The notes beneath the pieces are model-generated. The model was given only the letters and a program-made list of their open reading frames with translations, searched no databases and was not told the DNA's origin. The translations under genes were made by a program, and so were the position numbers. 64,000 nucleotides of DNA from Trypanosoma brucei (taxonomy: Eukaryota): NCBI GenBank assembly GCA_000002445.1, contig CP000066.1, positions 640,001-704,000 on the forward strand, given 5' to 3'. Below are positions 5,449-28,870 of the stretch, in pieces (within the stretch, counting starts at the first letter, position 1; every line of letters starts with the position of its first letter).

Positions 5449-6123
5449 TCAGAGAAATAGGAGCAACACTGGAAAAAAAACCTGGTAGATAGGTGGTTGC
5501 AGCGGCTGAGATTTGCTTTTCTGCTGTTCCGGGGGGCGAACAGAGGAAGTTCCGTTACGTTCGCTGCCAAAAGTGGAGGAGACAGTACCTTTATTTTCGG
5601 ATTTGAGGTGGCCGTCATCCTTAGAGGGTGAACCATTTTCCTCCTTTTTAGGGGTCGCAGAAACCGAACTACCATTTCTCACCGGCTCTTCAGAAAGCAC
5701 AGGGCCGTACTCGGATGATGGAGGTGCCTCACCTTTGTTAGAGGCCTCGTCGCGACTTGAGTCTCCACCCGCTTCCACAACTGGTGAAGCGACTGCGGGT
5801 GTTGGGAGCCCAAGGAACTCACTAACCTTTGCAGTGACACATCTATAATTGAAAGGACAACGCAAGGTTCCCCCGCCACAAACGGTACAGTTCCCGTCAG
5901 TGGTTGCGCCAGATGGTACGCTTCGGATGGGAGTGCAGTTCGCTTCCGCATACTTCACGAGACGATTCTCTTCTGCTACGCCCGCTGGAGCCTTAATTTT
6001 CAGCAAATCCGTACACATATCCACAACTCCAACTCGCGTTCCCCATCCCTTCCCATAAGTAGCAACAATTTGAACCAATCCCGCGAACAGGGTTAATACA
6101 CAGACACACACAGGTCTCGTCAT
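5449..6123 (-). CDS. Array copy 4 (mosaic): 224 aa from the first plausible ATG. Signal peptide MTRPVCVCVLTLFAGLVQIVATYG. The N-terminal Cys domain is divergent (about 50% identity). The C-terminal stalk and tail match copy 1
   Basis: The ORF-track start at 6210 is a TTG. In-frame ATGs lie at 6204 and 6123, and the 6123 one precedes a proper signal peptide. The conserved core CTVCGGG...RCVTAKVSEFLGL is retained. Confidence 0.5.
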   Translation of the reverse strand: MTRPVCVCVLTLFAGLVQIVATYGKGWGTRVGVVDMCTDLLKIKAPAGVAEENRLVKYAEANCTPIRSVPSGATTDGNCTVCGGGTLRCPFNYRCVTAKVSEFLGLPTPAVASPVVEAGGDSSRDEASNKGEAPPSSEYGPVLSEEPVRNGSSVSATPKKEENGSPSKDDGHLKSENKGTVSSTFGSERNGTSSVRPPEQQKSKSQPLQPPIYQVFFPVLLLFL

Positions 6124-7031
6124 TAATCTTTTACTAACATAACAATAAAAGCAAAAAAACTTCTTTGCAGAGCAATTAACTCGCTTTCTCTCATGTTTAA
6201 ACATTGTCAAGTTACCTTTTGTTTAATATACAGAGCCAGTTAACCACTCAGAAAACAACCAGTGAGTATAATCAGCGTCCACAATACTTATCCGTATGGG
6301 AAGAAATGAAATATGAAGTTACGTCTTTTAAAATCTTTATCAAAAGCAGCAGCCAAGCGACCGGAGACTCACATTTATCAAGTGCGAGTAGGGGGCATCT
6401 GTGGTTCAATAACATAAAAACACATGCAGTAACAAGTTTTCGCAGATAAATATTATGGAGTACCACCTATATAAGTCCAAGTCCACACAAAAAAAACCCA
6501 AGCAAAAGCAAATACACAGTAAAGAAATAATTACAAACACATTTGATAGCACCGTCTGTTGATAGCAAATACTTAAACAGCGAAGAAGAAAGACGTTCAA
6601 AGCATTACAAAACACATCGTGGAGCAGTTCTGTAGAAACGATTACAAATGGGAAATAACCAACTCCCACGAAACAGTACATCACTGTAGCCAGTCCATCA
6701 AGAAAAATTGGCAGCGTCTCGGCGCGTGATTCAACTCTTTTCGAACGCTAGACAGCATCCACAACACTAAGCAGTTAGGTACAAATATAGATCACTACAT
6801 AGCAAAAGCAAAATGCGGTAAGTACCGCAAAGGGGTCCCCCATCCTTACGCTGTTCTATTATTTATTTCGCTTCTTCCACTTTATTGCAGTCTACAATTA
6901 TAGGCGCTTTCTCCCATCATATATTAAAGCATAATAGCGCGAGAAAGAACAAAAGGTCATAGATTAACGTATCGAGCTAGTGTGAGGGGTGATGCTCTGA
7001 GGCAGTATTTGTATCTAGTTTAGTGACGGAT

Positions 7032-7949
7032 TTATCCGGTGATAAAGCATACAATTGCGACAAGGAGGTTCTGTATCGCTCCATATCTCACGTTGTTTCC
7101 TTTTTTGTTTTCTGGTTTGCGGTCGATTCTTCCTGTGTTTGATACAATTCCTGCACCTGCTGCAACTGTATCATCCCGTCCGCGCACTGGTTCCTCCCTT
7201 CCTGGGTCTGCATCCTGTTTCCCATTGGTCGTCGTGCCATCTTCTGCAGCATCGCGCTGGTGATCATTCACTGTACCTTTTTCTGGTGAAGATTCCCCTC
7301 GAGGGTGAGTATGCTTCCCTCCCTGAGTTGCTCCTCCCTTTTCTGGTTCCTTTCGGGTCAAGCCCTCACCTCCAGCTCCGTCCTTTTTCCCCGAAGCTCC
7401 CCGCTTCTCCCCAGCAGTTCCCCGCTTTTCCCCCGGACTTTGCTGATCTTCCTTTGGAGTTTCCTCACCTTCCCCCGAAGCTTCCTGCTCCTCCCCCTCA
7501 CTTTTGGGAGCACTGCTCGCTGTCTCTTCGTCGTCCGAACCGCTACCCTTAGTTGTGTCTGAGGGTCCCTGTTCAGACGCGGCAGACTGCTCTACCGTCT
7601 CTTCTGTAGGGACCTGTTGTGTTATACTCCGCCAGTCGGAGTCGGAGCATGTTGTGGCATTGAGTGAATCCTCGCTTGAGTCCTCGTCCGTGCAATTAAG
7701 GGTGTGCAGCCGGTGGCCGTTTCCATGAAAAATGGCGTACACTTTGAGCTTCAGCTTGAAATATCCCTGTGGTTGTCCCTTTCCGATCAGAAGCACAGGA
7801 GTGTTTGTGCAGTTGGCAGGGTGCCACTTGCCCTTCCATCTGCACAGCGCCCCTTCCGCTTCATTATGCAGACAGTCACACCTGAAAGTCACTGCTGAAG
7901 ATCCCAAAACTACACAACTTGCTAGAAACAACGCTGTAAATGTCAACAT
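7032..7949 (-). CDS. 305-aa predicted secreted/membrane protein. Signal peptide, Cys motif (FRCDCLHNEAEGALCRWKGKWHPANCTNT), long acidic Gly/Glu/Lys-rich low-complexity region, C-terminal hydrophobic segment LLVAIVCFITG
   Basis: ATG confirmed at 7947-7949. Compositional architecture resembles a surface protein. No recognisable enzymatic motifs. Confidence 0.45.
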   Translation of the reverse strand: MLTFTALFLASCVVLGSSAVTFRCDCLHNEAEGALCRWKGKWHPANCTNTPVLLIGKGQPQGYFKLKLKVYAIFHGNGHRLHTLNCTDEDSSEDSLNATTCSDSDWRSITQQVPTEETVEQSAASEQGPSDTTKGSGSDDEETASSAPKSEGEEQEASGEGEETPKEDQQSPGEKRGTAGEKRGASGKKDGAGGEGLTRKEPEKGGATQGGKHTHPRGESSPEKGTVNDHQRDAAEDGTTTNGKQDADPGREEPVRGRDDTVAAGAGIVSNTGRIDRKPENKKGNNVRYGAIQNLLVAIVCFITG

Positions 7950-10900
7950 AGAGTGTTAGCTGCCTGTCCTCTACTTGTAAAAATCACTGAAAAAGGGATG
8001 TACTCGGTAAACACAGGGTCCACACAAACGCAAACACACGTTCCTAACAGCTTTCAATTGCACTTACACTCCCCGTTACTCCAGCAGGTTCCACTGGTCG
8101 TCAAATTTAGCAGTAAATTTATTCCTCACGAAGATAAGCTATCACCAATCCACTAATAGGCAATCGGTCACCCTTCTGGTCGACTTCTGTAGACTTACTA
8201 CCCCATAATTAGTTGAAGTTTTTGGGTAAGGCTACCTGCGCCTGAAGTTTTAGAGACCCCGGGAATTTCTAAGTGCATGCGCGAGTTGCATTGCAGCCAC
8301 ACAACCATATATGCCCCGGCGTGCCTGTAAAAAAGACAAACACGTAGTTACTTAACAAGCAGATGTGCTCGCGCACGAATGTCTCCCAGTAAAAACACAC
8401 ACAAAGGTATAACGTGAAACAACAATTCCAAGCTAACTTAGCGGATATGTATTAAGACAAAATAATTAAAGCAGTCATGGTGGAAAGAACTTGAAATATG
8501 GAACTTAAGGGAACACCGTTTCCCCCTTTTTTCTTAAAGATAAACGGTCTGACTTTCCTATTTATCTTCGTTACCGGTTACGTCATTGTCACTCTGAAGC
8601 TTTGTTTCGATTCTGCTTCCCGCTACAACGCCGGCTGTAGCAATAAACCGGCCTCCTCTTAGGCATGCTTGAGCGCTTTTCATTCCCGCTTTTGTTATTC
8701 GCCAAGAAGTGGCTTGACAGGTGTTGGAGTTTCTTTGATCCACCTCAAACGCGGGGTTTCCTTTTTTTTATTCCCTCCAAAAATACGAAGGGGCAACTCG
8801 CCTAGCGGTGATTCCACCCACAAAAGAGAAAGCACACACAACGTAAGTTAGCGTGATGAATAGGGTGTACAAAGTTAATTATACCCTTTTTCCACCTTAC
8901 GTTGCAAAGGTCAGGCATGTCAGTTAGTTAATATATTTTTCACCACCGTCGGAAAGTAATTAAGTACCACTTTAGGCAATCTTTCCCTCTATGTCCGGGG
9001 ATCAATACGACCTTTCACATCTCTCCTCGTCAACACCTTCCCCCTACTGCGCTTTAGTGAGAACAGCACCAACTCAGGTGAATCAACGAAGTAAATACCA
9101 ACAACTATTGGGGACTTGGAAATGTACCTACCTCCGTGAGCGTTACCGATCCTTCAAATCACTGGGTGTTTTTTTTTAAAAAGAGCGGCTGGAACCCATG
9201 GCCCCTCATGTCACCACAAAGCCGAATCTCAGTACTTGTGCGCCCTCATTCACACGTTTAGTTGTTATCATATTAACAGGTTCCAATAAGATGGTACCTT
9301 TCGCGTTACTCTAGGCCCGAAATCGGTTGTGGAATCATTCAGGACCTACCGCCACCGGTGGGATACCTTTCCCGACTCCAAACTTCAGGTTGCAAACTCT
9401 CCGTACCTGCAGAAAGTAGCAGCGCCCCGATAGAAAGTTAGGTTCCATCACCTCTTATCTTTAAATTTGTTTTTATTCACATGCGACGGAGTTTAACTGA
9501 CGAGGCACCAACCCATTCCTTTGTAACTTCAGGGATGATGCCGCTTTCGGCCGCCCTCTACACGACAACCTCTAATTATCCAGAGTAGCACCAATAACAT
9601 ATGCTGTTACCATTTAAAAGAGCATTCAGCATGGATGACTTCCCCCCGATGTCACTAATAATTGAGTAACGCGGTTCCGGAAGTGTTGTGTTACAACTTA
9701 TTCTCTTAGGATGGAACAAACTCCTTCGTGGTAGCACACCTTAGCGGCATCGTGAGATATTCACCACAGCACCAAGTGGGGGAGATTGATTTAGGCGCAT
9801 GAAGTATGGATGTCACTGTGCGGGTTGTACTGTTCAAAAGAGTGGGTTGTCGGCAAAAGGTGTTACAAGCCACACGATGTTACACGAGTAGACGGAAATC
9901 TAATGAGGTGCGTTCAGCTGTTGTGCGCACGTTCGGACAAGAATACGCCAAAGTGAGGCAATAATGTGCACGTGAAGACGGCACTAACGCGTAGATCGTT
10001 TGCCACTTGTATATCATATTTCCCCAGGAGTCCAGCCCAAAGTATTCGTACCGGCTGAAGGCGCACATTAATGAATTTCAACGGATGCATCAACCACAGA
10101 ACTTAGAGAAGGGCTCCGCTACCACTGGTAAATACTAAAGGAGACATTGCCCCTCTCCCAAAGACATAAAACCGTTGCCGAAGGCGCCTCAGAGAATTGC
10201 GATTATAGAGGGAGTAAGCCGGCATGCAACACGTTGGCACTCGCGCGGCTCTCGCAAAGAGTATTTACATTTTATGTGCAATGCAAACTCCTCTCCGTGC
10301 GGATACGCCTTTCACCGTCGACACCATTGGCACTGAGACTTTAGCAGTAATTGTAGAAATGTATAAGCCCCCGTATGTTGCACTTTTATTTATTGACAAT
10401 GTGATACTTCACGCAATCCCGTGCCTGCCCTCCCCATCGTTTTGTTCATTCCGTTTTTAAGCCATAACTGCGGGGCTGTGGTGACAAGGTTCAAAGCGAC
10501 CACCAATAGGAGAGGAAAGATATATACATACATATATATCATCAGGCTTCTTTTGGCCCGAATGCGCCAAGAAACTATTGAGTGTTTCCCCTCGCGTGGC
10601 AAAACCACTTCATGGGGCGATAAACTCCCGAGCTCACTCACGGGCAAAACATTCCAGTAGGAACTTGTAAAATGTGGAATGGAGGAGGAATGACTAGCAA
10701 CCGAGCGGGAAGTTTTTGGCACACTGCTTATTCCCAGCACCATGACCGCTACCGATGGCATTGGACTCACCTTGTTCTTTTACCCCAAAGAACTTTAGCA
10801 GGTACCGTACTGCTTTTATGTTTTAACACAACCGTCGTTCCCCCTATAAACTCCGTTTACCTTCACTCCTTCCGCAGGGAAGCGCAAACGAGCAAATAAC

Positions 10901-12521
10901 CCCCGGTATTTGAGCTTTGCAGATCCCTCTTACGCATATATCTTGCGATGTTGACAACTGCAGCCCGACGACGATAGCGGTTAATTGCTAGTGACACTGG
11001 CTGATTTGGTACTTTATATATATATATAAAGGAAGTTAAACGTCACCGTCTTGCCCTCCGTAACCAGATGATGATGGAGATTAACTCACTGTCAAGCAGG
11101 TTAGATGCGCAACGCAATGCGGGACTCCTCAGTTTAAAAAAAAAAAAAAGCATCTTAGTCTACCACTGAACCCGCGGCAACTTGTTCTGACAAAAACTGA
11201 CCGTGGTGTGTTTCCCGCCATTTATTAGGGGAAAATGTCACGCGAAACCAAAGTAAAGAGGGCAGAAATAACTACTCACCAACCTCTGACCTGCTGAAAA
11301 ATGGTGAGGGACAGAGAATGTAGTTGGATTACTCAGCCAGGGATAACTTGTATTTGTGCTCGCGTCATGTGTTTCAGACTAGAGGTGTCATTTGCACAGA
11401 TAGATTCACATCATTGTTCCAACAGAAAGAGTAAATAAGGGGTGACGAATGATAGGGTGCGAAGGAAGGAATAAATAACTCAGAACCAAACGAAGTATAA
11501 GTTTCGTCAAGACATTTCGTACGACAAGAGTGAAACGTTATAGTCATCAGTGGCTTCATTTGTGGTAGCGGTGGTGCCGATCACTTGTGAGCCCGCCGGT
11601 AGGATGAAGGGTCTTCCACTGAACAATAACATGGCGGCGCGCTTTTCCACACCCAACTTTGTTAGGTCACACACACACGAAACAAATCCAACTGAATGTT
11701 CCATTGCTAAGGGTACAGTAGCAAAATGGGAGGAAATAAGTGCATAATCTGCTGAAGCGCACTACCAGTCCCTGGAATGAAGGTGATTACAGATAACTAA
11801 CTTCAACATACTCGAGCATTCTTTCAGCCATTCGAGCGGCCAATAAGGGAACCGTTGCACTTCCTTCCTTTCCTCCTCCTTCCCCCTATAAATATCGCAC
11901 TGGTAGCGCCCACGGGGATGCCTCACCGTCCCTAGGCGCTGCGGCGTCCCATGAACAATATCATGAACGGTTAAACAAAAACAGAAGTAAAAAAGTGAAC
12001 TTTTTGAATACTGGTGGAGGAAGAGGAAATAACAAGTATTTATGCACGACACAAAAATGATATTGGTACAAGGTTGAAAGCAAAGTGCTTTGGAGACCCA
12101 TCGTTGGGGCGAGGAATTTCTCACCACTCCCATTCAATGTGCACGAATAAACTCCCGCCTGCTCCACACCTTTGTACGCTCATTATCTCGTTCACCTTCT
12201 CTCACATCATCATCATTCCTTTATCATCTCCCTTCATTTATGCTTGCACGACAGCAGAGGTGTCATCCCGCAGAGACACACATACACATACACACACGCA
12301 CACGTATACAAATATCATCTTCAGCATGCGACGGCCAACACAGTTCAGTGGGAGTGAGGAAGACGCTAATCACATTCCCTCCATTTATTCCCCCTTGTCT
12401 TTCTCCCTCAGTTTCCCCTTGCGTATTTCCCTCGTCTACTCTCGTCGCTCCCCAACTTCCATGACTAGTCAATAAAAATAGATAAAATTAAAACAAAAAC
12501 AAAAACAAGACCGACAAACCC

Positions 12522-15500
12522 TCACTTCTGCTCATTTCGCTTTGCAGCGAGCTCGCTCACCCATTTCGCCTTTTTGGCGGCGTACTTTTCCTCGGCAAAT
12601 CGCTTCTGTATTTGCAGCTGAAGTGAATTTAACCGCTCGGCTACTTTCAGCAACCTCGGAGCTCCCGCACTGTAACCTTCCTCCTGTGCTGTAAAAGATT
12701 CATCAGGCATAATGGCTGTTAGAATGCTGGCGGCCGGTAAGTGAGCCTTCCGCACCAGTCCAGCCAAATTGGAAATGAGTTTTTCGGCTCTGTTGAGCAC
12801 CGAGTAGGAAAGAGACTGTGAGAGCCCATTGAGTTCCTCCAGCATCGTGAAGCGGTAGTTCTTCCGAGTGGTGTCAATCTGCGCTTTAACGCGGAGGAAA
12901 TCAGCGAGACAGGCGTTGATGAGAACCTGCGCTCCATCATGACGCCATCCGTCTGATACATCGAGAACGGGAAGCAGACGACGGTCGCAGAAGAGATCGT
13001 CGCGGAGAGAAAAGACAACTTCATCAACAGAAGTGAAGACGTCACCGCAACCACTGATGGCCACAAACGGGTGACGAGCCTTAAACTGAACGGCAGATTC
13101 CTTGAGCGCATCCATTAGTGGGAAATCACCGGCGCCGTTGCCAAATATAAGTTGGTCGCCACCCGTTTCCACGTATGGCAAGCGGGGACCTTCACTCGAT
13201 TCCTCCTCTTCCTCCTCTTCCTGCTCCTTTCCCTTCTCTTCTTTCTCCTTCTTCTCGTCCAACCTTGACGCCAATTGGTTGTAGAAGGCAGAAAGCAGAG
13301 CAAAGAACTCTGTGTTATCAAAAGGACGTACGGAGGGGGAGCAAACATCAACGGGCGACAGTACGACACGATGTTGTGTGGCATTTGTTTTGCCCTCCCA
13401 CACCACGCTTACAGCCGGGTCAAGTAAAGCGGAACGATGAATTTCCAGCGGTACACCACATGTTTGGTGGAATGAGAAGAGATAGGCAAGCAGTTCGGCA
13501 ATAGGTTCATCCGTAACACCGCTGTGTAGCTCCTTATCGAGAGCAGGTGGATAGTGAGCCTCATGGAAAACTCCAGAGGTCAGCATGCGAATAAAGGCGA
13601 ATCCCTCATTACCCACATGGGCCTCCCTGAAAACGTACATGACATCTTGCAACAAGGAACCCAATGAAGAGGGGCGGTCCCGAAAGTGGAGTCCTTGCTT
13701 CTGCAGGAATACAAGGAGCATTTGCAGGTACTCTATGGTGAATCCCTCCATGTTACTTTGTGCAAATGCCTCCCGGCGTTGGAAAAAGAGCGGATTAACA
13801 AACAGCCTCTCGGCCAACTTCTTAACGTGCTGCTTCCATGCGTCCTCGTGCTTCAACGATCTGTGCGTGTTATAATCATATAACTGAAGTAGTCGCAACT
13901 GTGATATGGGGTCCATCTGCACATTCCCCTTAATCACCGTCATGCCGCTCGTCATAAGCCGCTTAATGCGTTGCATGGTAATCCCTAGGAAAATCAAGTG
14001 GCCGAGGTGATCGAGACCACGACGACCCGCACGACCCATCATTTGACGGAACTGCGTCGGATTTAACAGGATGTGATCACCGGCGAGTACAACAGAACGA
14101 CACGGGCTGTGAATGCCCAGCGCCAATGTTTCCGTGGAGAAAATAACACCGCAGTGGCGGCCTCGGAACAGCCTTTCCACGTGACCACGAAGTTTACCCT
14201 TCACACCGGCATGATGCATCCCAATACCCCGCTTTAAAGCGCGAAGAAGGAGGTCCTCCCCCTCACCTTCGCAGTCCTTTATTAGTTCCTTTACGACATC
14301 GGGTTCCACGCTGCACCCCGCCCCAATGAAAGTGAACTCGGGAAGAATATCTGGGACTTCGCAGACCTCCCCCTCATCTTCTTCACCTTCGTCCACATCA
14401 CGCTCGGCCCTCTCCACCTCACCATCCTCATTAGTCCTGAGGCGCTTTTGCTTCAGCGTGGACTCGCGTTGTTTGTGCCTCGCCTCCCGCTCCGCGGCCG
14501 CGCGCTCCACCTTGGCTTTGTAGAGGGCGAATTCCTCAGTTTGCCGGTAGCGCTCCTCTGCCTCTTCCAGCTGCTCCACAACGTACTTCACCAAGTCTTC
14601 ACAGTCTTCGGACTCGAAGCTGAACACAATAGCTGGGCCCATGTCCCTAGCGGAAATCTCGCGCAACACATTCAAACTTTGCTCTCGAATAAATTGCCTT
14701 GATCCCGGAAAAGCCGCCTCCGGCACCGCCTCATCTGACTCTTGCTCACTTCTACCCTCAGTGTTGGTCCTGCTTTGTTGTTGTGCGCGCTTCCTCTCCA
14801 TAGCTGCAACAGCATAGCTACCGAGCGCCGCCTCCTTCTCGTTCAACTTTTGCGCAAAGGCTGCAAGGATGGTCTCCGTTGCATGTTTCATCGTGGAGTT
14901 GAACTCTTTCACCTGTTCATCGGAGGAAATATCCGGCTTCTTCACGCTACTGTTGCTTAGCAGAACCCACTGAGCGAAGGCGTCCTTTACTTCCCGTTCA
15001 TACAGACGTGCACGCTGCTGGGTAATATACAAGTCCGCTTCAAAGTATCTCCCTGGCTCAAGGAGCTTGAGCTTCGACTGCAGCATCTGAACCCGCGGTA
15101 TCGAAGACAACTTCGGCCAAATGATGTTATCGAAGGCGGTTCGCATTTCCCCAAATAATGATACCACCTCACTGGGGACAAGGGTAATGTCAGGAGGGAA
15201 TCCCCGCTGGAGTTGGTCCGTTGTGAGGATGGACAAGGGATGTAAGTCGTGGATGTAGCGGTTCTCATATGTGGTAGTGAGTTTCTTCAAAGACGTACGC
15301 GTATCGGGAGGGGGAAGATAAATGTACTTCTTTATGTCATTCCATCGCTGAATGGTTTGGCCCTCCGATGGAAGCACGTGTACCCTATAGTCACGTGCCT
15401 TAGCGGGTGTGTCAACTGCCTGCTCCTTCAGCCGAGATTGCACGCGATTAAGCCACCCACACAGTTGCTGAGTTTCTCCCAGCGTGGCTGAAAGCGCAAC

Positions 15501-18500
15501 GAAAGGGCAGGGCAGAAGGGCAAGAATGCGTTCCCACACGTCACCATTGCCATTGCTCTCCATGGAGTGAATCTCATCGAGAATTACGTAATCGATAAGG
15601 TCAACCCATTCAGCGTACTTGGGTGAAAGCAACATGGTTTCAAATGTCTCGGGCACAGTCAGAAGTACTTGGCAGGAATCGTGGAACTGATGGTAGTCGG
15701 CCCCACCAAGAACACCATAAATATATTTACCACTATTTTTGTACTCTTTGGACCCATAGCGAGCGCAGACATCGGCCACCGCTTGATTAATCAACGCACG
15801 GGCGGGAGCAAGGTACACAACAATCCGCCTGTTGGAGCGGCGAAGAGTGTTATACATGCAGTAATACGAAACAAACGTTTTCCCAGCTGAAGTTGGGGCA
15901 CACACTACAGCACTCCCGCGATTGTCCACGATGTCAAGGAGCTCTCGCTGCCAACTGTCTGGGTTGAAGGCAACGCGGTAATCGGGTCTTCGAATGACCG
16001 GCCGCTCAAGCAGGTGTCCCATGTGAATGAGTTGCATCATTTCTGGTGTGTCGGTCAGTTGCCGCATCCGCGGGAGCATCGTTGGCCCTAACAAACTCGG
16101 TGCCTTATTTTGCCACTGAGTGATGGCACGGTCCAGCTTGCTGTAGTAATCTTCCCCAAAGTCCAGGTGCCTCAGAGCGGAGCGTACCGTGTCAAGGTCC
16201 TCTTGCGATATTTGCAGACCCTCGTTTTGGACCACCGACAAGACGTGATGGTGGCAATAAAGAAACAGCGGAATGGCTACCGATAGATCCGGTGTTTCCT
16301 TGGCCAAACGGGCACGCTCCCGCTCACTACGCCAGTTTTCGAGACGAAGTTTAACTACGAAGCATTTGATTTTCATCTGGATGTGCAGTTCCACGTAGGA
16401 CAGATACACCCACCGCAGGTACGACGCAGCTTCCGCGCTTGTTATATCCGACTTGAACTTCCGCAGCCCCTCCAGTTCTCCCCATTCTGTGCTCTTATCA
16501 CTTATGGTGGCGACGAGGTTATCAATGACTGTAAAACCGTATGGCACAGCAGTCTCCGTCTTCAAGCCCTTTTTCTTGACAGCGCGGTTCTTTGCCGAGG
16601 GATCTTCAAGCGTGAGCGCAAACTCCGCCTCACGGAGCCCACTGGAAGCCACAAGCAGGCGCCACATGGAAATCTTTAACGAAATATCGCTACCTTCACT
16701 CTTTCCAATCGTGCGATCGGGCTCGAAACCTTTGGTGAACTTTGCCTCCGCGAGTCGCTTGACTGCAGCCAAAAGTTTCTTCACAGCGTCATCACGATCT
16801 TTGTTGGTCGTACGTCCGTGCGTTGGGTCGATGCTGCGGAGGTGATCGTCCATTTGCTTCAACCAACTCTGAATGCTACTTGCGGCGTCTTTCAAATTCT
16901 TCTGCTCACGAATTTCATCATCCTTGCTACGCCCCTTCTTATTACGCTGTCCCTCGTGCTCATTATTCCCCTTTTTCTTCTTCGCGGCCGCACCCTTACC
17001 ACACCCTCCTGCACCTCCTGATCCAGCGGCGTCAGTGCTTTCTTGCTCATTATCCGAGCAAACCAAAGTTAGTGGTTGGGCGGCGAAACCACTTATTCCC
17101 ATGGACTGCGCCTGCTGGAAGGCGTTACGGACGAACTTCGTCTGAAACTCCTGCGCATGTCTTGCTTCCTTCTCAGTCATGTGAATCTTTGCCTCACGCT
17201 CCCCATCAGCATCAGTAACGTCGTTGAACTTGTCGAAAGGAGTGGTTATATCCCACCCAATAAGCTCATTGGCGGCGCCGTAGCCATCGGGTATCGGCCG
17301 CTTTGCCTTGTGTCCCTCCACCTTGAAGGTTTTGGCCAGGTGCTCTACTAACTCGTGTTTAAGGTACGGATATTCCTGAAGCTGCACAGGTTGAGGCTGA
17401 GCTAGCTCAGGGAGGCTCCTAAACGGTGTCGAGGTAATGTCAAGTGTGTCGTCGTCCATAAGATACTGCCAAGTCATGGAGATGTCCCCTACACCGTCTT
17501 CATCCAACAAATGGCTTGGCGCTTCTTCGCGTAGCAATCGCGCAACGGCGTAGAGGAGATGTCCGTCGATAATGTCGAATACCTGACCGCCTCCGTTGTC
17601 GCAGCCAGCGTGTCGAAGTGCGCTAAGGAGAAATGGTGAGATATCCGCAATAAAGTTTTGGAGCACGGCGCTGGGTAATGCCGCCTGGGCCCTGGCCTCG
17701 CAGCTCAGTATTCCCACAATGTAAGCCGTTATAACAAGGGCCTGACAAAGCTGCTGCTCTTGTTCGCTTCGTTCCTTCATGGTTAGATAGGTGCGTACTG
17801 CCGAACAGACAATCTTCTCACGGAATGTCAGGTCCTCGTTCAGCACGTTCAATGATTTTTGGGACAATGTGGGCAACGTCACTTCACGTTCGAGTGATTG
17901 AGCCAACGCGCGCACCTCCGGCTCGATTCCCAGCGAGCGCTCAAGGGTTGAGCCGTCCACGCCCATGGTGAAGACGATCATAGAGTTCTCCCTGTAGATG
18001 ACACGAGACGAGTACGCGACTTTGAGGCGGCGGGAGGCTGCCCAAAGCAGCAGACATCGAATATACATAGCCGCATCATTTCCTATTTCCTCGTCCTCAA
18101 CGATGCTCCTGTACGGCCGACGTGCAGGCACAGCGACGGCACCGCTGGAGTTGACACCTGAGGATGCATTAGTTGTTTCAACCTCCGGATTGACAAAAAA
18201 CTCTTGCAGCGGGTTCAAGGAACCCAGTTGCTCACCGTCAGACATGAAGATAAACTCCGGCTCCCACTCTTTCAGGTAGGTCTCAAAGGCCTCACTATGG
18301 AAACTTGGAAAGGTACGCACGGTGAAGCGGGAGCCGCCTGGGCACTCGCTCGCGGCTGTCAGTGCCAGTCGTAAGTTTTCCCTCATCAGCATTTTCGCAG
18401 GGGCTCGTTCCCACATCCACAACATACTATCGAAGAAAACAATGTGGAATCGGGCCCCGCGGCACTCCATATCGAAGAGCAGCTTTTGTGCATTGTACAT

Positions 18501-19034
18501 GACATGTAATGGCTGTATGAGGTCCCAGTCTACATTTGGTGGTGAGAGGGCAGACATGAACAAGGAATCACCGTCTATAAAAAACATCTCCGTTGCGGCA
18601 AGATGTGCGAACATGTCACAGAGTTCGGGCCGTGCAGTGGCGTAATGGTGCTCCACCGCCGTACGCAGCAGCTCTTCTTCAATCACAGCTCGCATCTTCC
18701 CATCCTTCTGGACGGCAGCAACAAGGAACTTCCACGCATTGCGTTCCTCTTCCTCGTGCTTCAGGGTGCCGACAATTCCACCGGCTGGTGGCTTCCCTCC
18801 GTTTCGGAACGCGGATAACACGGCGTCACATACGCGACTTAATGCGCTGCGGCGACGTGCAACTTGAGCGATTTTCCCCTCATATGAGGCATCAGCCTCT
18901 TCCTGAATCGGAATGTTTTTGGCTTCGAAAATGGCCTGTAGGGCCCCTACGGTATCCATAGGAATTTTTAAAAAATCATCATCCTTGAGACAGTTACCGA
19001 ACAGCAGGTTAAGATCCCGTTGCTGAGTAGCCAT
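12522..19034 (-). CDS. 2170-aa superfamily-2 DExH-box helicase, Ski2-like / DDX60-like. The helicase core sits in the middle of a very large protein
   Basis: ATG confirmed. Motif I CAPTSAGKTFVSYY, motif II VILDEIHSME, motif III ALSATLG, motif VI QMMGRAGRRGLDHLGH. The helicase-C region (IGMHHAGV...VIFSTETLALGIHSP) matches the Ski2/Mtr4/Brr2/DDX60 pattern. Confidence 0.8.
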   Translation of the reverse strand: MATQQRDLNLLFGNCLKDDDFLKIPMDTVGALQAIFEAKNIPIQEEADASYEGKIAQVARRRSALSRVCDAVLSAFRNGGKPPAGGIVGTLKHEEEERNAWKFLVAAVQKDGKMRAVIEEELLRTAVEHHYATARPELCDMFAHLAATEMFFIDGDSLFMSALSPPNVDWDLIQPLHVMYNAQKLLFDMECRGARFHIVFFDSMLWMWERAPAKMLMRENLRLALTAASECPGGSRFTVRTFPSFHSEAFETYLKEWEPEFIFMSDGEQLGSLNPLQEFFVNPEVETTNASSGVNSSGAVAVPARRPYRSIVEDEEIGNDAAMYIRCLLLWAASRRLKVAYSSRVIYRENSMIVFTMGVDGSTLERSLGIEPEVRALAQSLEREVTLPTLSQKSLNVLNEDLTFREKIVCSAVRTYLTMKERSEQEQQLCQALVITAYIVGILSCEARAQAALPSAVLQNFIADISPFLLSALRHAGCDNGGGQVFDIIDGHLLYAVARLLREEAPSHLLDEDGVGDISMTWQYLMDDDTLDITSTPFRSLPELAQPQPVQLQEYPYLKHELVEHLAKTFKVEGHKAKRPIPDGYGAANELIGWDITTPFDKFNDVTDADGEREAKIHMTEKEARHAQEFQTKFVRNAFQQAQSMGISGFAAQPLTLVCSDNEQESTDAAGSGGAGGCGKGAAAKKKKGNNEHEGQRNKKGRSKDDEIREQKNLKDAASSIQSWLKQMDDHLRSIDPTHGRTTNKDRDDAVKKLLAAVKRLAEAKFTKGFEPDRTIGKSEGSDISLKISMWRLLVASSGLREAEFALTLEDPSAKNRAVKKKGLKTETAVPYGFTVIDNLVATISDKSTEWGELEGLRKFKSDITSAEAASYLRWVYLSYVELHIQMKIKCFVVKLRLENWRSERERARLAKETPDLSVAIPLFLYCHHHVLSVVQNEGLQISQEDLDTVRSALRHLDFGEDYYSKLDRAITQWQNKAPSLLGPTMLPRMRQLTDTPEMMQLIHMGHLLERPVIRRPDYRVAFNPDSWQRELLDIVDNRGSAVVCAPTSAGKTFVSYYCMYNTLRRSNRRIVVYLAPARALINQAVADVCARYGSKEYKNSGKYIYGVLGGADYHQFHDSCQVLLTVPETFETMLLSPKYAEWVDLIDYVILDEIHSMESNGNGDVWERILALLPCPFVALSATLGETQQLCGWLNRVQSRLKEQAVDTPAKARDYRVHVLPSEGQTIQRWNDIKKYIYLPPPDTRTSLKKLTTTYENRYIHDLHPLSILTTDQLQRGFPPDITLVPSEVVSLFGEMRTAFDNIIWPKLSSIPRVQMLQSKLKLLEPGRYFEADLYITQQRARLYEREVKDAFAQWVLLSNSSVKKPDISSDEQVKEFNSTMKHATETILAAFAQKLNEKEAALGSYAVAAMERKRAQQQSRTNTEGRSEQESDEAVPEAAFPGSRQFIREQSLNVLREISARDMGPAIVFSFESEDCEDLVKYVVEQLEEAEERYRQTEEFALYKAKVERAAAEREARHKQRESTLKQKRLRTNEDGEVERAERDVDEGEEDEGEVCEVPDILPEFTFIGAGCSVEPDVVKELIKDCEGEGEDLLLRALKRGIGMHHAGVKGKLRGHVERLFRGRHCGVIFSTETLALGIHSPCRSVVLAGDHILLNPTQFRQMMGRAGRRGLDHLGHLIFLGITMQRIKRLMTSGMTVIKGNVQMDPISQLRLLQLYDYNTHRSLKHEDAWKQHVKKLAERLFVNPLFFQRREAFAQSNMEGFTIEYLQMLLVFLQKQGLHFRDRPSSLGSLLQDVMYVFREAHVGNEGFAFIRMLTSGVFHEAHYPPALDKELHSGVTDEPIAELLAYLFSFHQTCGVPLEIHRSALLDPAVSVVWEGKTNATQHRVVLSPVDVCSPSVRPFDNTEFFALLSAFYNQLASRLDEKKEKEEKGKEQEEEEEEESSEGPRLPYVETGGDQLIFGNGAGDFPLMDALKESAVQFKARHPFVAISGCGDVFTSVDEVVFSLRDDLFCDRRLLPVLDVSDGWRHDGAQVLINACLADFLRVKAQIDTTRKNYRFTMLEELNGLSQSLSYSVLNRAEKLISNLAGLVRKAHLPAASILTAIMPDESFTAQEEGYSAGAPRLLKVAERLNSLQLQIQKRFAEEKYAAKKAKWVSELAAKRNEQK

Positions 19035-19659
19035 GCACTGCCTTACTCACCTTTCACCTTCTTTCAGTTCCCTTTTTCTCCTTCCCTGAATTTTACCCTT
19101 TTCTCTTGTTCGCTATATAAAAACTATAACCTGAGATTTCTCTTTTATATGCCTGCTTTTTGTTCTGCTTCTTAGGATCACTTAGTTAGTTTATTTTTTT
19201 TATTTTATTTTTGTTCTGTGCGTGTATTTCACCTTTGTTAGCTAAATTTCTGACAGATAATGTGAGCAGAAAGAAGGAAAAAGGATTAAGCACTACGTCC
19301 ATCTCATGGTATTACCGGCGCGCAACTTAAACATTCCGCATTTTTTATGCAAAGGAATTTCAAGTATGCCGTGGATAAGCAAACACACGAACACAGGGAA
19401 GGAGAGACCGTCGCAGCATACACAACTGCGTGCGAAATGCAAAGGAGCGGCAAGAAAAGAAAAATGAAACAACACCGACAAAAACAGAAGACGACAAACG
19501 TCAACCATGGATTGGGTAGCCGCAATATTATAAAAAGTTATGGCCCTCACGCCTTCCTGCCGAGACAAGTGTGGATTTTCATCGCAGGTTGGAGGTCGAC
19601 TACGAAAGTCTCGTACGACACCACTGCAGCGTCGTTTGTCTCCCAGTGTGCCGCCAGTC

Positions 19660-19790
19660 CACCAAGCAGCAACAAAAAAAAAGACAGGGAGAGAGGAGGA
19701 AGAAAACGAAAAAAACAAAAAGGAAAGGAAAGGAACACGAGAGCCGTGATTCCAAAAGCAAAGTTAATATACACGCTTTTATTTTCTTAG
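19660..19790 (-). promoter_or_regulatory. Sense-strand polypyrimidine tract (purine-rich on the plus strand) between the PGAP1-like and helicase genes. Candidate trans-splicing/polyadenylation signal
   Basis: Plus strand reads aaaaaaaaagacagggagagaggaggaagaaaacgaaaaaaacaaaaaggaaaggaaagg, which is poly(C/T) on the coding strand. Established kinetoplastid mRNA processing uses such tracts. Confidence 0.4.
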
Positions 19791-22234
19791 TTTGAGGTAC
19801 CAGGAGCTAGAAGGGTGCCACCACTACCACCGGACACGAGCGCCGGACCAAGCAAAAAACATGGAAAGGCGTACAGCAGCACCCAAACAATACGAAAAGA
19901 CGCCACTGGAACACTGATCATCCAAACAAGGGGAATCAGCACAAGGAGAATGCACAAATGCGGTGACAGCCGCTGAATCCATGGGCTGGCCAAAGCCTTG
20001 GCCAAAGAAGACAGTTTGTCCCTATGAAGCTGCTCACAAAACCGTTGCTCATGATATAAAGGCCACATCACGTATGAGAGAATAAGCACGAGTAATAGCA
20101 CCTCCACGGCGCGACTGGTGAAGTCCACTACGGTGGCATCGTCAAACGTGGCTGATCGCAGCGCGTTCCTCCACGCGAAGAAGGGATGAAGGTGAATTAA
20201 GTGCAAAAGGGCGTAGGCCGACACTAACATATACGCCTCCTCCCTTCTGCCGTCACTGCTGTCAAAGGTAGCGGTTTGATATGACGCAGAGAGAGGCAGT
20301 AGAACTATAGTGAGACACAACCACACTAGGGCGCGGTCACATATACGCAGCGGTAACAACACACCACACAGAAAAACAACTACACCAAACACAGTGACCG
20401 GTATTATCCGGTTCCACGGCTCATCGCAATTATCATCGCTACGTGTGGGCGACCTGCGAACCCACCGCGGTAGTCTTAGATAGATGCACGCACGATGAGT
20501 AACCAACCAGAATTTCGTCCATCCAAACTTACTTCCCCTCAAAAGCAGCTGAAGCAAGCGATAAGCAATAATACCCATCCATATGCCTTTCAACGCGGGG
20601 CCGGAAGCGGCAAAAGCACACCAAACCAACATGAGAGGATCAAATGTGGGTTTGCACACAAGCGTGTCAGCGATCCAGGGCGACTTACATCCTTCCATTG
20701 CTGGTAGCAGACAACATGGTATCTGCACGAGTAACAAGTGGCCCACAATTCCCATTATCGGGGTAACCATAACAACAGCCGTGTGCGATGACGTGAACAA
20801 TGATTTCCATGACCAATCTGCGCAGCAATGGGACAGCACACGGAGGTTCAGCAGCAGCCGCAGCAGCAGCGGGTGGATCGCGGAGAGGACGAAAGAACCG
20901 TATGAAAACGCCACCAACACGGTAAGGCCGACATGAGTGTAACTCGCCTCCGCCCACCACGAAAAGGCATCTGAAAAGGAGTGCGGCGGAGGTGCTGGAT
21001 CATTGATGCCCTCTGGTAAAGACCAGTTCCGCAACTTAAGGTTCCTTGACTCGGGTGAAATACCATCCCCCCTGACCAGAGAATTTCTAATAACGGCAGA
21101 GGTCCAGAATTCAACAACACAGTAGTCCCTCATTATATCGTCATGAGAAAACGTCTTTCCACACACTTTTGGGTGCTCTGTGGTGACATCAATACACGAC
21201 CCATTGTTGCACCCAATGCTGTCACTGAGGCGCGTGTGTTTAGACTGCACCATCAAGTCTAACGGCCCCGACGTAAGTGAAAGAATGCGGGGATTGCGAT
21301 AGCCGTTGCGGTCATTAGCCAACACATTTTTCTGAACAGGATCCCAAAGTGTTTTGTACAACCTCCACATGGGCAGGTCAAGAAAAACAGGCATCTGACG
21401 GTTTGGACTGTTCAGTGTAATAACTCCGGCAATCAACGGGAAAACCTGTGAGTCTGATAGAGTCGACAGCGCCATTCGTACCACAACGCCACCCATGGAG
21501 TGACCAATGAGCCATATGAAGGGAGGGTTATGCGTCTCGTTTTTTCGGTCTTCATACAAAGTTATTATTGTATCCGCTACAAAATCTGCCTGATGATGCA
21601 GAAGAGCACCGCGATGGGCATTTGCCTGCTCGGAGAAATCAAAGGTGTACAACCTTCCCTTGATTTTTTGCTCCTGCAAAAAAAGAATGCCAAGCCGGTG
21701 GGCCTGCATGTAAGAGCCTGCGTTTCCATGAGCAAAGAATATAATTACCTCCGGCGGCTTTTCCTGCGTCGGTGCGTATGTGCTGTAACAATCAGGACAA
21801 CTGACTTCAAAAAAGGAGTACGGCGGGCTGCTTCCCCTGTTACTCCTCTCGTCACCCCACTTCGGATTCTGCAAGAACAATCTTCGATAACTCAGTGGGT
21901 GCCACGCAACCGAGTCCGGAAACACACGAAATCGGTTGTTGTTGGCGTAGTCCCTGATCTGTAACCCAAGTCGCACGACCGAAAGTGCGTAGAGCAGTGC
22001 AGCAGCCAAAGAAAACAGTGTAAATAGCACAACGAGATTTTTCTTCCTTTGCGGAAGGGATGTCGCAGCCGGATTGACACCTGACGAGGGGGCACCAATT
22101 CCACTTAACTCTTCATCTTCTTGGCTAGGCATATGTTCGTCGCACAAACCTTTGTCGAAGCAGTACCCACTGACAGGTCCGTCCCCTGTATATGCACTGC
22201 AATCATCCTCCCTTTCATCACCACAAAGGCGCAT
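19787..22234 (-). CDS. 815-aa PGAP1/Bst1-like GPI inositol deacylase: alpha/beta-hydrolase lipase domain followed by a multi-pass hydrophobic C-terminal half
   Basis: ATG confirmed. Motifs IIFFAHGNAGSY and the nucleophile elbow GHSMGG. Several predicted TM segments in the C-terminal half. All typical of PGAP1. Confidence 0.7.
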   Translation of the reverse strand: MRLCGDEREDDCSAYTGDGPVSGYCFDKGLCDEHMPSQEDEELSGIGAPSSGVNPAATSLPQRKKNLVVLFTLFSLAAALLYALSVVRLGLQIRDYANNNRFRVFPDSVAWHPLSYRRLFLQNPKWGDERSNRGSSPPYSFFEVSCPDCYSTYAPTQEKPPEVIIFFAHGNAGSYMQAHRLGILFLQEQKIKGRLYTFDFSEQANAHRGALLHHQADFVADTIITLYEDRKNETHNPPFIWLIGHSMGGVVVRMALSTLSDSQVFPLIAGVITLNSPNRQMPVFLDLPMWRLYKTLWDPVQKNVLANDRNGYRNPRILSLTSGPLDLMVQSKHTRLSDSIGCNNGSCIDVTTEHPKVCGKTFSHDDIMRDYCVVEFWTSAVIRNSLVRGDGISPESRNLKLRNWSLPEGINDPAPPPHSFSDAFSWWAEASYTHVGLTVLVAFSYGSFVLSAIHPLLLRLLLNLRVLSHCCADWSWKSLFTSSHTAVVMVTPIMGIVGHLLLVQIPCCLLPAMEGCKSPWIADTLVCKPTFDPLMLVWCAFAASGPALKGIWMGIIAYRLLQLLLRGSKFGWTKFWLVTHRACIYLRLPRWVRRSPTRSDDNCDEPWNRIIPVTVFGVVVFLCGVLLPLRICDRALVWLCLTIVLLPLSASYQTATFDSSDGRREEAYMLVSAYALLHLIHLHPFFAWRNALRSATFDDATVVDFTSRAVEVLLLVLILSYVMWPLYHEQRFCEQLHRDKLSSLAKALASPWIQRLSPHLCILLVLIPLVWMISVPVASFRIVWVLLYAFPCFLLGPALVSGGSGGTLLAPGTSN

Positions 22235-22833: not shown

Positions 22834-25800
22834 TCACTCACGTTTTAGTGGCCACTGAAGGAATTTAACTGCACTCACAAGTTTATTCGATATAATAACG
22901 GAGATATTCACCGACACATCTCTCAGGAGGCATACTACACGCCATGGTTGTGGAGGTCGCGAGACACGCGTATGACTCGCAGCGTCGGCCACAACCGCAC
23001 CTTCAATGCGTGTGCGAAGGCAGAGGCGTAAATGGGAATCTTCCAGCCTCACGCTTGTTCGTTGATGGAGAGCAGGTTGCTCCGACGCGTGCAGCGAGGG
23101 GCGGATAGTTTGACCCGCATTATGGTTCATGAGACTTGGTTCCACTGGACTCTTTACTTCCATCAAACGTGGCGAAGCAAAGCCGCTACTGAAGTTGCGC
23201 AACTCCCCTTCATGATTAGTGCCGCCTTGCAGCCTCACACATCCACTCACCTCGCATCCCCCCGGTGCCTCATAGCAACTGCCGCAGCTACCAAATTGTG
23301 TGGAATGGCCACATTGGACAGCTGCTAAGGTAAACGAACTTATATCTAGTCCTTGTATTGGCCCGGACCTCGAGTGCTTTCCCTCATTTCCATAATCCCA
23401 TGGTTGGTTATCAGCACACCATGGCAAGTCGCTCCACGGGATAGAAGTTGTGGGTGATTGGATTCCGCCATGTGCAGCCGTGGAAGAGGCTATTGCATGC
23501 AACACAGAATTCTTCAGTGTTACTGTGGCATGTCTTGCTACAATGATCTCCTTGTAGATGCAGTAGCCGCTACATCCCGTGAGTGATACCTTGGCACACT
23601 CTGCTTGTAAGGCAGGGCCCCCAACAGCACTTATAAATACACTTCGAGTTGCCTCCAGAGAGCTGTCACTAACAACAAATACAGCCTCCGAGCCGGCAAA
23701 AACACAGCGAGTGGCAGCAACCCTTGAATCCATTGCCACCGAAAGCCGTCGCACACGTACATTCTCCAACACCAATGAAGACCCATCCGTAACATGCAAG
23801 CGTACAGGCAATATTGGGGTGTCTGAATCACTCCGCTTCGTGGGTTTTGGTGCTTGCTGGTCACTTTCTTCATTTAATGGGCACCCACCATTTTGTCTTG
23901 GACCAATATCAATATCAGCTGCGGATGTGCGGTAGCGTACGTCATCACGCGGCACACCCGCCACAGCAGCCGCAGGTCTTCTGGACTCTTCTCGTGATGG
24001 TAACCTCCCGGAGTGAGTGGCTCCCTCTGATGTGCTTCGGTGAAAGAAAAATGTCATATTCTTATTGTGCATTGGGGGAACTACATCAGCAGCCCCGCAC
24101 ACCTCACCCCTGGCCCCGCTATGCAGTACTAATGTGTGCCAAATCACCTTGCTGTGAAGTTGGCCTATTTCTCCAGGCTTAAATGAATCAGTGGCACGGG
24201 GGACATGGCCAGATGAAGTGCCGCGAGACAAACCGGCTTTGTTTGCAAGACATGGTGTTGGAACACATTGCAGCAAGACATTGCGCAGTCGAACATACGC
24301 ATTCGATCCCTTAGCAAAGATGGCAGCCCGCACTGCCGGGCATTTGTGCCCACAATCACATTTGTCTTCTTCCAGGACATTCAACTGTGCAGCTTGCGTT
24401 TCCTGCACTATTACATAACACGAGTTCATGGACAGCTGGCCGCCTTCATAAACACGAATGGGACACCCCACTTGCTCTAATACACCATCTAACTCCAGAG
24501 ACTGCGGCGCCATATCCGCAGCGGCAGCAGCATCACCGTCCAGGTGAAGAACGGTGTTGTCGAGTACACATTTCCCAAAAATTCTCACATTCCCCTGCAG
24601 GACGCTGAAGACATTCTTCACACTGGAAAAACGAGAAAACACCTGTGATGCTGTCACGCGGATAGCTCCGCCATGGGAAACTAACAGCGAGTAATTCCAC
24701 ACATTTTGTGCTAAGCAATCAGATAGATACACGTTCGACCCAACTAGAGCGTTGAAGGCGACGTTGCAAAACTCTGCCTTACACCGATACAGGTACGCGA
24801 CAGCTTCGGCACCACACCTCACCGCAATCGCCGCGCCGCCGCCAAACACTGCATTATGAATAACAGCCGTCCCTTTGTCCATCACAAAACAAGATGGGGG
24901 TTGACCGCAAAGACTAGAGCAAGTGGTTGCGGGTCCCAAAGGGCCTGACAGCCGACATGCTCCAAAGTCTCCGGATACGCTGACCTCTAAGAGGCTATCC
25001 ACCGTCGCGTCAAATCTTGCACCGCAGTTTACGTGGACACCTGAGCGCGAGAATCCGCTAATCTTCACATTGCCCTCAACCTGCACAATGCCGTTTCTGT
25101 TCTCAATACCGCACACCCGCGCCCTGTAACTTCCGTGATGAACAATGCACGTTCCCTGATTGAGCACAAGCACACCAACATGGTTACACTCAGTAGTACA
25201 GTGATTAAGACAACATTTCGCACTATCCACCAGGTAACCGTTGGCAACGTCGGACGCTACACATTGCCAGGCCTCCATCTCCGTATCCGCGTCAAGCGCG
25301 GCGTAACCAAAAGTTACGTGACGAACTTCGCACGCAGTTAACTCACAATGGCTACCTGCCCACGCCTTTACACCTAAACTCCACGTTCCACCGCATAAGC
25401 ACGTGGGGGAAGTCGTGGCGGTCTCATCCAAATCCCTGCAAACGCCGCACCCTCCGTCGACACTTACGGAACTGCAAGTGATGACGGGCGCGTACACCGG
25501 CGATTCAGTCGATTGGGGCTCGCCTGGTAAATCGGGCGGCGCTACGGAAGCTGTACAGCCATGGAACGGGTCATCGCTCATGTCCACCATACACTTTTTG
25601 AGGCATAAATAGCCACCGTTGTGAGAAGTAAAACCGCTCTCAAGACTTCCACGGACGGTAACGCCAACGCATCGAACGTGACTCGACCGGCTATCCAATC
25701 CGCGAATGCGGCACTGAAAAATGCAGGGGATGCCACCCAATATACAGTGTGGTGCGTCCGAGTTGTCTATGCTAAGCTTAGACTGATTAAAGGCGAGCAC

Positions 25801-28683: not shown

Positions 28684-28740
28684 CTGCTTCTTCCTCCTGT
28701 GCGTCCACCTCACGATCCAACCCTCTTCTAGAGCTATTGG

Positions 28741-28870
28741 AGAGAGAAACGGAGTAGAAGCCCTTATCAAACGGAAGAGACAAAAAACAAAAGACACACA
28801 AGTTGGCGTACGGCACTCGGTAAGTAAAGTTAGCAGAGAGCTAAAACAAAAGTAAGACATAAAAAATAAT
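28741..28870 (-). promoter_or_regulatory. Sense-strand polypyrimidine tract upstream of the UBC/beta-helix gene. Candidate splice-acceptor region
   Basis: Plus strand is AG-rich (ggagagagaaacggagtagaag...aaaaaacaaaagacacacaag). The TTG-extended ORF translates this as FFMSYFCFSSLLTLL, a signature of reading through a pyrimidine tract. Confidence 0.4.

Follow-up and report, generated by a model that had tools for sequence, protein, structure and literature searches.

The 64,000-nucleotide window analyzed here (Trypanosoma brucei contig CP000066.1, positions 640,001 to 704,000 of the forward strand) contains, at 12522-19034 on its minus strand, one ATG-initiated open reading frame (ORF) of 2170 amino acids (aa) whose stop codon lies at 12522-12524 according to the ORF listing. 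The translation is an exact match to the T. brucei brucei TREU927 protein XP_843853.1 / UniProt Q582X2 from chromosome 3, and the T. equiperdum cluster representative differs at a single residue (N167 vs. Y167). On one side, the ORF at 7032-7949 is identical to 'hypothetical protein Tb927.3.2590'; on the other, the ORF at 19787-22234 is PGAP1-like and matches Tb927.3.2610, which has been named 'GPI inositol deacylase 2' (PMC6299225). Because the helicase ORF is flanked by these two genes, it was identified as Tb927.3.2600 of chromosome 3. Trypanosomatid orthologues are full-length with 44-66% identity, the T. cruzi orthologue showing 64% identity across 100% of its length, and the best match in the PDB (7ASE chain f / 7ASK, 'kDDX60') extends end to end with 3119 bits. 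This end-to-end conservation in other species indicates a real gene, and the motifs and domains found within the ORF far exceed chance. Taken alone, the identity of the ORF as Tb927.3.2600 / k-DDX60 (kinetoplastid DDX60) is practically beyond doubt.

The helicase core was found in the middle of this protein, as described in the initial annotation of the locus for an ORF of more than 2000 aa, with DEAD assigned to aa 1029-1188 and Helicase_C to aa 1593-1673 of 2170. All four motifs quoted in that annotation (APTSAGKT, DEIH, SAT, and QMMGRAGRRG) are present in the translation, and two RecA domains carrying the full DExH motif set identify a superfamily 2 (SF2), Ski2-like protein. Within a 16-species alignment of orthologues, motifs I, Ia, II, III, IV, V, and VI are invariant, supporting catalytic competence. 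The conservation profile computed from the same alignment is highest in the FEN/PIN-like segment at aa 151-200, in RecA1, and in RecA2; the lowest bin of the core (0.39) falls in the insertion at aa ~1365-1445, where the kinetoplastid proteins differ in length and the remaining DDX60 proteins chiefly show a gap.

The assignment to the DDX60 subfamily of Ski2-like helicases, also made in the initial annotation, was borne out by profile, similarity, and phylogenetic evidence. The Pfam profiles PF00270 and PF00271 both matched, as did the DDX60-specific PIN-like domain PF23002 (aa 137-267; E 5e-16, 59 bits vs. a cut-off of 27). With the helicase core alone (aa 990-1800) as the query for the family search, the best non-kinetoplastid match was a EukProt protein with 595 bits, followed at 300-400 bits by DDX60-named coral, crocodilian, and marsupial proteins and by chytrid and glomeromycete proteins, and PF23002 is present in several of these non-kinetoplastid matches. 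The DSHCT-bearing Mtr4/Ski2-type proteins scored 137-150 bits and aligned over the RecA domains only, Brr2 and PolQ scored ~50-65 bits, and the Brr2/Slh1/ASCC3 group scored 50-86 bits. NCBIfam returned Hel308-type matches only, all far sub-threshold (~90 bits vs. cut-offs of 850-1200). The module following RecA1 (aa ~1200-1360) can be aligned to DDX60-like proteins of animals, fungi, and diatoms and is absent from the DSHCT-bearing and Brr2 proteins; similarly, the charged insertion within RecA2 (aa ~1490-1565) is common to the DDX60 family and absent from the DSHCT (Mtr4/Ski2) and Brr2 groups. BLASTP against Monodelphis DDX60 recovered three collinear blocks (aa 148-266, 1000-1308, and 1597-1853), the last with 32% identity (E 4e-26), and profile-profile comparison with hhalign showed aa 129-500 to be homologous to fungal-type DDX60-like N-termini (probability 99.5%, E 3e-23).

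In a neighbor-joining (NJ) tree of 383 columns with 200 bootstraps, built by a simple distance method that included partial DDX60 sequences, the kinetoplastid clade joined animal/fungal DDX60 at 74% support and at 100% once the diatom DDX60-like group was added, with the DSHCT, Brr2/Sec63-type, and PolQ groups outside the DDX60 grouping. The protein therefore groups with DDX60 and not inside Brr2 or another Ski2-like clade, in agreement with a published maximum-likelihood (ML) tree in which Tb927.3.2600 lies in the DDX60 branch with support of 100/100 (PMC10639054). Two further Pfam families, PF26167 and PF26076, are listed for the DDX60 proteins of Porites, Stylophora, Gavialis, Antechinus, and Monodelphis and were not detected in the Tb927.3.2600 protein even at E <= 1; since they are likewise missing from several fungal-type members of the family, they were treated as features of a subgroup and not of the whole family. 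The argument originally drawn from the motif I and II variants discriminates only in part: APTSxGKT is shared with DDX60 and MTR4 has AHTSAGKT, whereas MTR4 likewise carries DEIH as its motif II. What decides the DDX60 assignment is the presence of PF23002 together with the shared insertions and the tree. Combined, the sequence comparisons describe Tb927.3.2600 as a Ski2-like DExH ATPase with one helicase cassette that belongs to the DDX60 family and carries extensions specific to its lineage.

A large group of diatom and marine-transcriptome proteins of 1150-1270 aa, some of them labelled DDX60 by JGI, was observed as sister to the DDX60 clade with 100% bootstrap support. These proteins share the post-RecA1 module and are without a precomputed Helicase_C or PF23002 match in Pfam.

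Outside the core, the N-terminal region was modelled with AlphaFold2 (AF2; aa 1-660). Residues 1-128 are helical in this model, with a predicted local distance difference test (pLDDT) score of mostly 62-92 that dips to ~50 near aa 41-50; they are moderately conserved among kinetoplastids (0.45-0.64), and homology outside kinetoplastid-type proteins was not found. The domain that follows has a predicted fold that is FEN1/XPG/EXO1/GEN1-like, its elements being a strand (aa 151-154) leading to D154 and D156, a strand (aa 196-201) leading to D202, a strand (aa 237-242) leading to a helix that begins with E248 and E251, and a strand (aa 261-265) leading to D266 and E268. This layout of carboxylates appears to mirror D34, D86, E158/E160, and D179/D181 of FEN1, the mapping being based on topology and general FEN1 knowledge rather than on superposition. 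D154, D156, D266, and E268 are the same in all 16 kinetoplastids, and E248 and E251 vary, E248 being kept in all six Trypanosoma species. The position equivalent to FEN D86, D202, is D in all six Trypanosoma, E in Phytomonas, R/Q/K in Leishmaniinae, and K in a marsupial DDX60, and a nuclease activity common to the entire family is for this reason unlikely. Pfam gave no match to the XPG_N and XPG_I families in the Tb927.3.2600 protein, a Foldseek search with the N-terminal domain returned 7ASE_f as the sole significant match, and PDB profile searches with the N- and C-terminal alignments returned 7ASE_f only. A literature search on the DDX60 PIN domain or DDX60 structure found nothing relevant, no nuclease activity is reported in the k-DDX60 literature covered by this analysis, and the N-terminal FEN/PIN-like domain is not mentioned in the two principal papers (PMC7773551, PMC10639054).

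The middle of the protein is restricted to the lineage. When aa 290-990 were searched exhaustively with phmmer against 1.84 billion cluster representatives, no more than 7 matches were obtained, namely five proteins of 2000-2200 aa, one truncated entry from Strigomonas, and one fragment of 58 aa, the named ones being trypanosomatid; with hhalign, aa 501-990 could not be aligned to other DDX60-like proteins. By these two results (phmmer for aa 290-990 and hhalign for aa 501-990), the protein carries lineage-specific extra domains that are absent from mammalian DDX60. This restriction agrees with the published structure, in which most of the ribosome contacts of k-DDX60 are made by additions missing in the mammalian protein (PMC7773551).

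The C-terminal region (aa 1701-2170) is conserved in kinetoplastids except for aa 1901-1950 and the extreme C-terminus. The T. cruzi model is described as having two winged-helix and two ratchet domains (PMC7773551), and one winged-helix/ratchet pair probably lies in aa 1701-2170, the domain names resting on that publication. An AF2 model of aa 1690-2170 from a 9-sequence alignment was too low in confidence for use (mean pLDDT 38, predicted template modelling score 0.23). The possibility that a second, Brr2-like helicase cassette lies hidden in the protein was considered and rejected, the hhalign probability for the N-terminal vs. the C-terminal half being 1.4%. The RecA domains of Brr2 served as the starting model for building 7ASE, and the wording 'C-terminal cassette' used in that paper (PMC7773551) can be traced to this template. 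The features of the gene and of its surroundings are collected in Table 1.

Table 1. Features of Tb927.3.2600 and neighbouring genes, in positions of the 64,000-nucleotide window (CDS, coding sequence; LRR, leucine-rich repeat).
Feature	Residues (aa)	Position	Strand	Basis
Complete CDS of Tb927.3.2600 (k-DDX60)	2170 + stop	12522..19034	-	ORF, translation, exact protein match
Upstream intergenic region with long polypyrimidine tracts (752 bp)		19035..19786	-	sequence read directly
N-terminal helical region	1-128	18651..19034	-	AF2 model of aa 1-660
DDX60-type N-terminal region with PIN/FEN-like domain	129-500	17535..18650	-	PF23002 aa 137-267 = 18234-18626
Lineage-restricted middle region	501-990	16065..17534	-	phmmer and hhalign
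Low-complexity Gly/Ala/Lys linker	655-720	16875-17072	-	sequence
RecA1 (DEAD/ResIII)	1029-1188	15471..15950	-	Pfam PF00270 E 6e-23, PF04851 E 1e-11
Motif I, APTSAGKT	1046-1053	15876-15899	-	computed from translation
Motif Ia		15783-15812	-	computed from translation
Motif II, DEIH	1153-1156	15567-15578	-	computed from translation
Motif III, SAT	1182-1184	15483-15491	-	computed from translation
DDX60-family post-RecA1 module, QRWNDIKKYIYLPP...HPL...GFPPDI.LVPSEVV	~1200-1360	14955..15437	-	alignment with DDX60-like proteins
Variable insertion, poorly conserved, kinetoplastid-type proteins only	~1365-1445	14700..14942	-	conservation profile and alignment
RecA2	~1450-1700	13935..14687	-	Pfam PF00271 (Helicase_C) aa 1593-1673, E 2e-8
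Motif IV		14616-14630	-	computed from translation
Charged helical RecA2 insertion	~1490-1565	14340-14567	-	common to DDX60-family proteins
Motif V		14112-14138	-	computed from translation
Motif VI, QMMGRAGRRG	1664-1673	14016-14045	-	computed from translation
C-terminal region	1701-2170	12525..13934	-	kinetoplastid alignment; partial DDX60 alignment
Array ORFs	218 each	907-1563, 2421-3077, 3935-4591	-	ORF listing
Variant fourth array copy		5449-6210	-	ORF listing
TatD-related DNase	729	35209-37398	-	annotated neighbour
LRR and ubiquitin-like protein		39159-40754	-	annotated neighbour
AGC/RSK-family protein kinase		42253-46038	-	annotated neighbour
Ankyrin and 6-phosphofructo-2-kinase protein		49701-52775	-	annotated neighbour

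The function of this family in kinetoplastids had been called uncharacterised in the initial annotation, a description superseded by published work on both the orthologue and the T. brucei gene. In the study of Bochler et al. 2020, 43S complexes stalled with GMP-PNP (guanylyl imidodiphosphate) were purified from T. cruzi and L. tarentolae and analyzed by proteomics and cryo-electron microscopy (cryo-EM), and T. cruzi k-DDX60 (7ASE chain f) was seen bound to the 40S subunit in the 43S pre-initiation complex (PMC7773551). According to the same study, k-DDX60 bridges the 40S head and body via 18S rRNA, eS12, uS12, and eS31, touches the N-terminal domain (NTD) of eIF3c as well as eIF5, and contacts the initiator tRNA's anticodon stem-loop through the helix of its A-site insert; it lies near the mRNA entry channel and blocks codon-anticodon pairing while bound (PMC7773551). 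Addition of ATP was accompanied by a swivelling of the 40S head, which remodels the mRNA channel, and a possible 48S class was found without k-DDX60 (PMC7773551). The authors suggested that k-DDX60 helps to handle spliced-leader/cap4 mRNAs up to the recognition of the start codon (PMC7773551). DDX60 from no other eukaryote has co-purified with pre-initiation complexes, and k-DDX60 was flagged as a possible drug target (PMC7773551).

Working in T. brucei, Girasol et al. 2023 tagged Tb927.3.2600 and depleted it by RNA interference (RNAi): the C-terminal mNeonGreen fusion was cytoplasmic in all cell-cycle stages, null mutants were unobtainable, and RNAi led to a growth defect (PMC10639054). It was among the proteins that DNA-RNA hybrid immunoprecipitation with mass spectrometry (DRIP-MS) brought down, and its depletion raised the nuclear S9.6 and gamma-H2A signals and derepressed silent variant surface glycoprotein (VSG) genes (PMC10639054). 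Tb927.3.2600 is additionally listed among the MKT1 interaction partners (PMC3985637, Table 4), and the gene ID also occurs in publications about the NOT deadenylase complex and about CTR9.

With identity and mechanism combined, it is highly probable that Tb927.3.2600 is the k-DDX60 that acts on the 43S complex. By analogy with T. cruzi, the T. brucei protein would occupy the same 40S/43S site as its orthologue; its ATPase may drive the rearrangement of the 40S head; the protein, or at least its A-site insert, would have to leave before start-codon recognition; and it may be needed for handling spliced-leader/cap4 mRNAs. Several points weigh against this assignment. The 43S association comes from T. 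cruzi and L. tarentolae alone, the ATP-state map is worse than 4 Å, and hydrolysis is not established (PMC7773551). Residue numbers for the A-site insert are absent from the text of that paper, and its conservation in T. brucei is presumptive. Furthermore, the recovery with RNA-DNA hybrids, the rise in nuclear S9.6 and gamma-H2A, and the VSG effects fit a pure initiation-factor model only indirectly (PMC10639054).

These last observations are the basis of one alternative, a primary or moonlighting role on RNA-DNA hybrids in which the protein would remove or process R-loops in the nucleus, possibly in conjunction with its FEN/XPG-like domain. Although the protein was found by DRIP-MS, ribosomal proteins were also prominent in that dataset and S9.6 may bind double-stranded RNA; the RNAi effects on S9.6, gamma-H2A, and silent VSGs (PMC10639054) are in keeping with such a role, yet the DNA-damage phenotypes could follow secondarily from a translation defect, and the tagged protein remained cytoplasmic throughout the cell cycle. 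The predicted FEN1/XPG/EXO1/GEN1-like fold also favors it, together with the invariance of D154, D156, D266, and E268 in kinetoplastids and the presence of D202 and E248 in all six Trypanosoma, while the substitutions at the D86-equivalent position (R/Q/K in Leishmaniinae and K in a marsupial DDX60) speak against a conserved nuclease. On balance, a role of this kind is unlikely. Similarly doubtful is the more specific idea that the FEN/XPG-like domain of Trypanosoma k-DDX60 is a working structure-specific nuclease, which would make the protein a helicase-nuclease and would explain the hybrid recovery as well as the R-loop, DNA-damage, and VSG phenotypes; this reading draws on the acidic residues that Trypanosoma keeps at every position mapped to the FEN active site (D154, D156, D202, E248, D266, and E268). 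If true, the helicase-nuclease could act besides, or within, the 43S role, e.g., by cleaving RNA at the mRNA entry channel.

The initial annotation had instead suggested an RNA-surveillance helicase or exosome cofactor, i.e., a Ski2/Mtr4-like protein that feeds RNA to the exosome. The protein does belong to the Ski2-like superfamily, and MTR4 and SKI2 are its next-best PDB matches at ~100 bits over the RecA domains. Mammalian DDX60 is said to have first been reported, by Miyashita in 2011, as binding exosome components, which counts in favor of such a role. The same is true of the entry in the MKT1 partner list (PMC3985637) and of the occurrence of the gene ID in the NOT and CTR9 publications. 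The domains expected of an exosome helicase, arch/KOW and DSHCT, were not detected in Pfam (no PF08148, PF13234, or PF22527 at E <= 1), however, and the DSHCT-bearing proteins fall short of DDX60 on the core (137-150 vs. 300-400 bits, in a RecA-only alignment) and form a separate clade in the NJ tree. The orthologue was moreover seen on the 43S complex with eIF2, eIF3, and eIF5 and not with the exosome (PMC7773551), and the proposal is accordingly very improbable. That the protein is no true initiation factor, and instead a 40S quality-control, recycling, or anti-association factor like Ski2 or Slh1/ASCC3 trapped on the GMP-PNP-stalled complexes, can be given hardly any credence: its position near the mRNA entry channel where it blocks codon-anticodon pairing, its absence from the possible 48S class, and the ribosome-bound SKI2 and SLH1 structures among the PDB matches would suit such a factor, but it shares one particle with the eIF2 ternary complex, eIF1, eIF1A, eIF3, and eIF5, contacts the eIF3c-NTD and eIF5 directly, is present in two genera, and shows no GMP-PNP density in its RecA domains (PMC7773551).

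Tb927.3.2600 is already known, being annotated in the reference genome, with its DDX60 phylogeny published, the cryo-EM structure of its orthologue deposited, and its knockdown in T. brucei done. As k-DDX60, it represents a parasite-specific, growth-required factor on the initiation complex. What is added here is a sharper description of the N-terminal domain, with a predicted FEN/XPG-like fold, four kinetoplastid-invariant carboxylates, and a full acidic set only in some lineages. These carboxylates might connect the ribosomal and the RNA-DNA hybrid observations and provide a target for mutagenesis.

Over the window as a whole, all 16 ORFs of at least 250 aa are encoded on the minus strand, as expected of a polycistronic unit in a kinetoplastid. 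Polypyrimidine tracts are a feature of mRNA processing in trypanosomes, and the interval directly upstream of the helicase (19035..19786) is the probable trans-splicing / 5' untranslated region (UTR) of Tb927.3.2600. On the downstream side, the ~4.5 kb between Tb927.3.2590 and the helicase stop codon (7950-12521) contain no ORF of more than 153 aa on either strand and presumably represent a long 3' UTR or intergenic region. Scans of the whole window for tRNA genes and with Rfam found nothing. The PGAP1-like ORF (19787-22234) was alone among ten ORFs in having no exact counterpart of its first-ATG sequence in the protein collection, and the start codon annotated for it is probably not the first in-frame ATG.

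A tandem gene array with a period of 1514 bp occupies 825-6210 on the minus strand; it was missed by Tandem Repeats Finder (TRF) because the longest TRF period was 500. Array copy 1 is identical to XP_843848 of TREU927 ('hypothetical protein, conserved'); XP_843849/XP_843850 belong to its cluster partner. The array protein has no Pfam match. From its composition, with both the N- and the C-terminus hydrophobic and with a Cys-containing region and a Ser/Pro/Glu-rich stretch, it looks like a small glycosylphosphatidylinositol (GPI)-anchored or secreted surface protein. Two long ORFs on the minus strand encode conserved hypothetical proteins, one of 2017 aa at 22834-28887 ('hypothetical protein, conserved'; 'Right handed beta helix domain-containing protein' in UniProt; no Pfam match at E <= 0.001) and one of 1694 aa at 55723-60807 (no Pfam match). 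The four annotated neighbours given in Table 1 are ordinary genes with no evident functional tie to the helicase.

Compared with known systems, Tb927.3.2600 is set apart from the FEN1/XPG 5'-nucleases by an N-terminal domain that has no XPG_N/XPG_I match and in which the D86 equivalent is not conserved in the family. With the dual-cassette proteins Brr2, Slh1, and ASCC3 it has in common that it is a large Ski2-like helicase, but it has no Sec63 domain (no PF02889) and no internal duplication, and it falls in a separate clade. Ski2 and Mtr4 share with it the Ski2-like RecA1/RecA2 core and motifs (~100 bits); unlike them, it has no arch/KOW or DSHCT domain in Pfam at E <= 1, and they in turn lack the post-RecA1 module and the RecA2 insertion and form a separate clade. 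The interferon-induced antiviral DDX60/DDX60L of animals is closer, with three collinear blocks in the marsupial protein that cover the PIN-like domain, RecA1 with the post-RecA1 module, and RecA2 with the region following it, and with the charged RecA2 insertion, PF23002, and membership of the same clade in the NJ and published trees also shared. The kinetoplastid protein differs from animal DDX60 by ~500 additional lineage-restricted residues (aa 501-990) and a longer N-terminus, by having no detected PF26167/PF26076, and by being growth-required and not interferon-linked (PMC7773551, PMC10639054). The T. cruzi k-DDX60 is a collinear full-length orthologue (2170 aa in T. brucei vs. 2174 aa) encoded at a syntenic locus (PMC10639054); in T. 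brucei the variable insertion (aa ~1365-1445) has ~26 residues fewer, whereas the domain order is similar, the helicase motifs are identical, and the middle region at aa 290-990 is found solely in this group.

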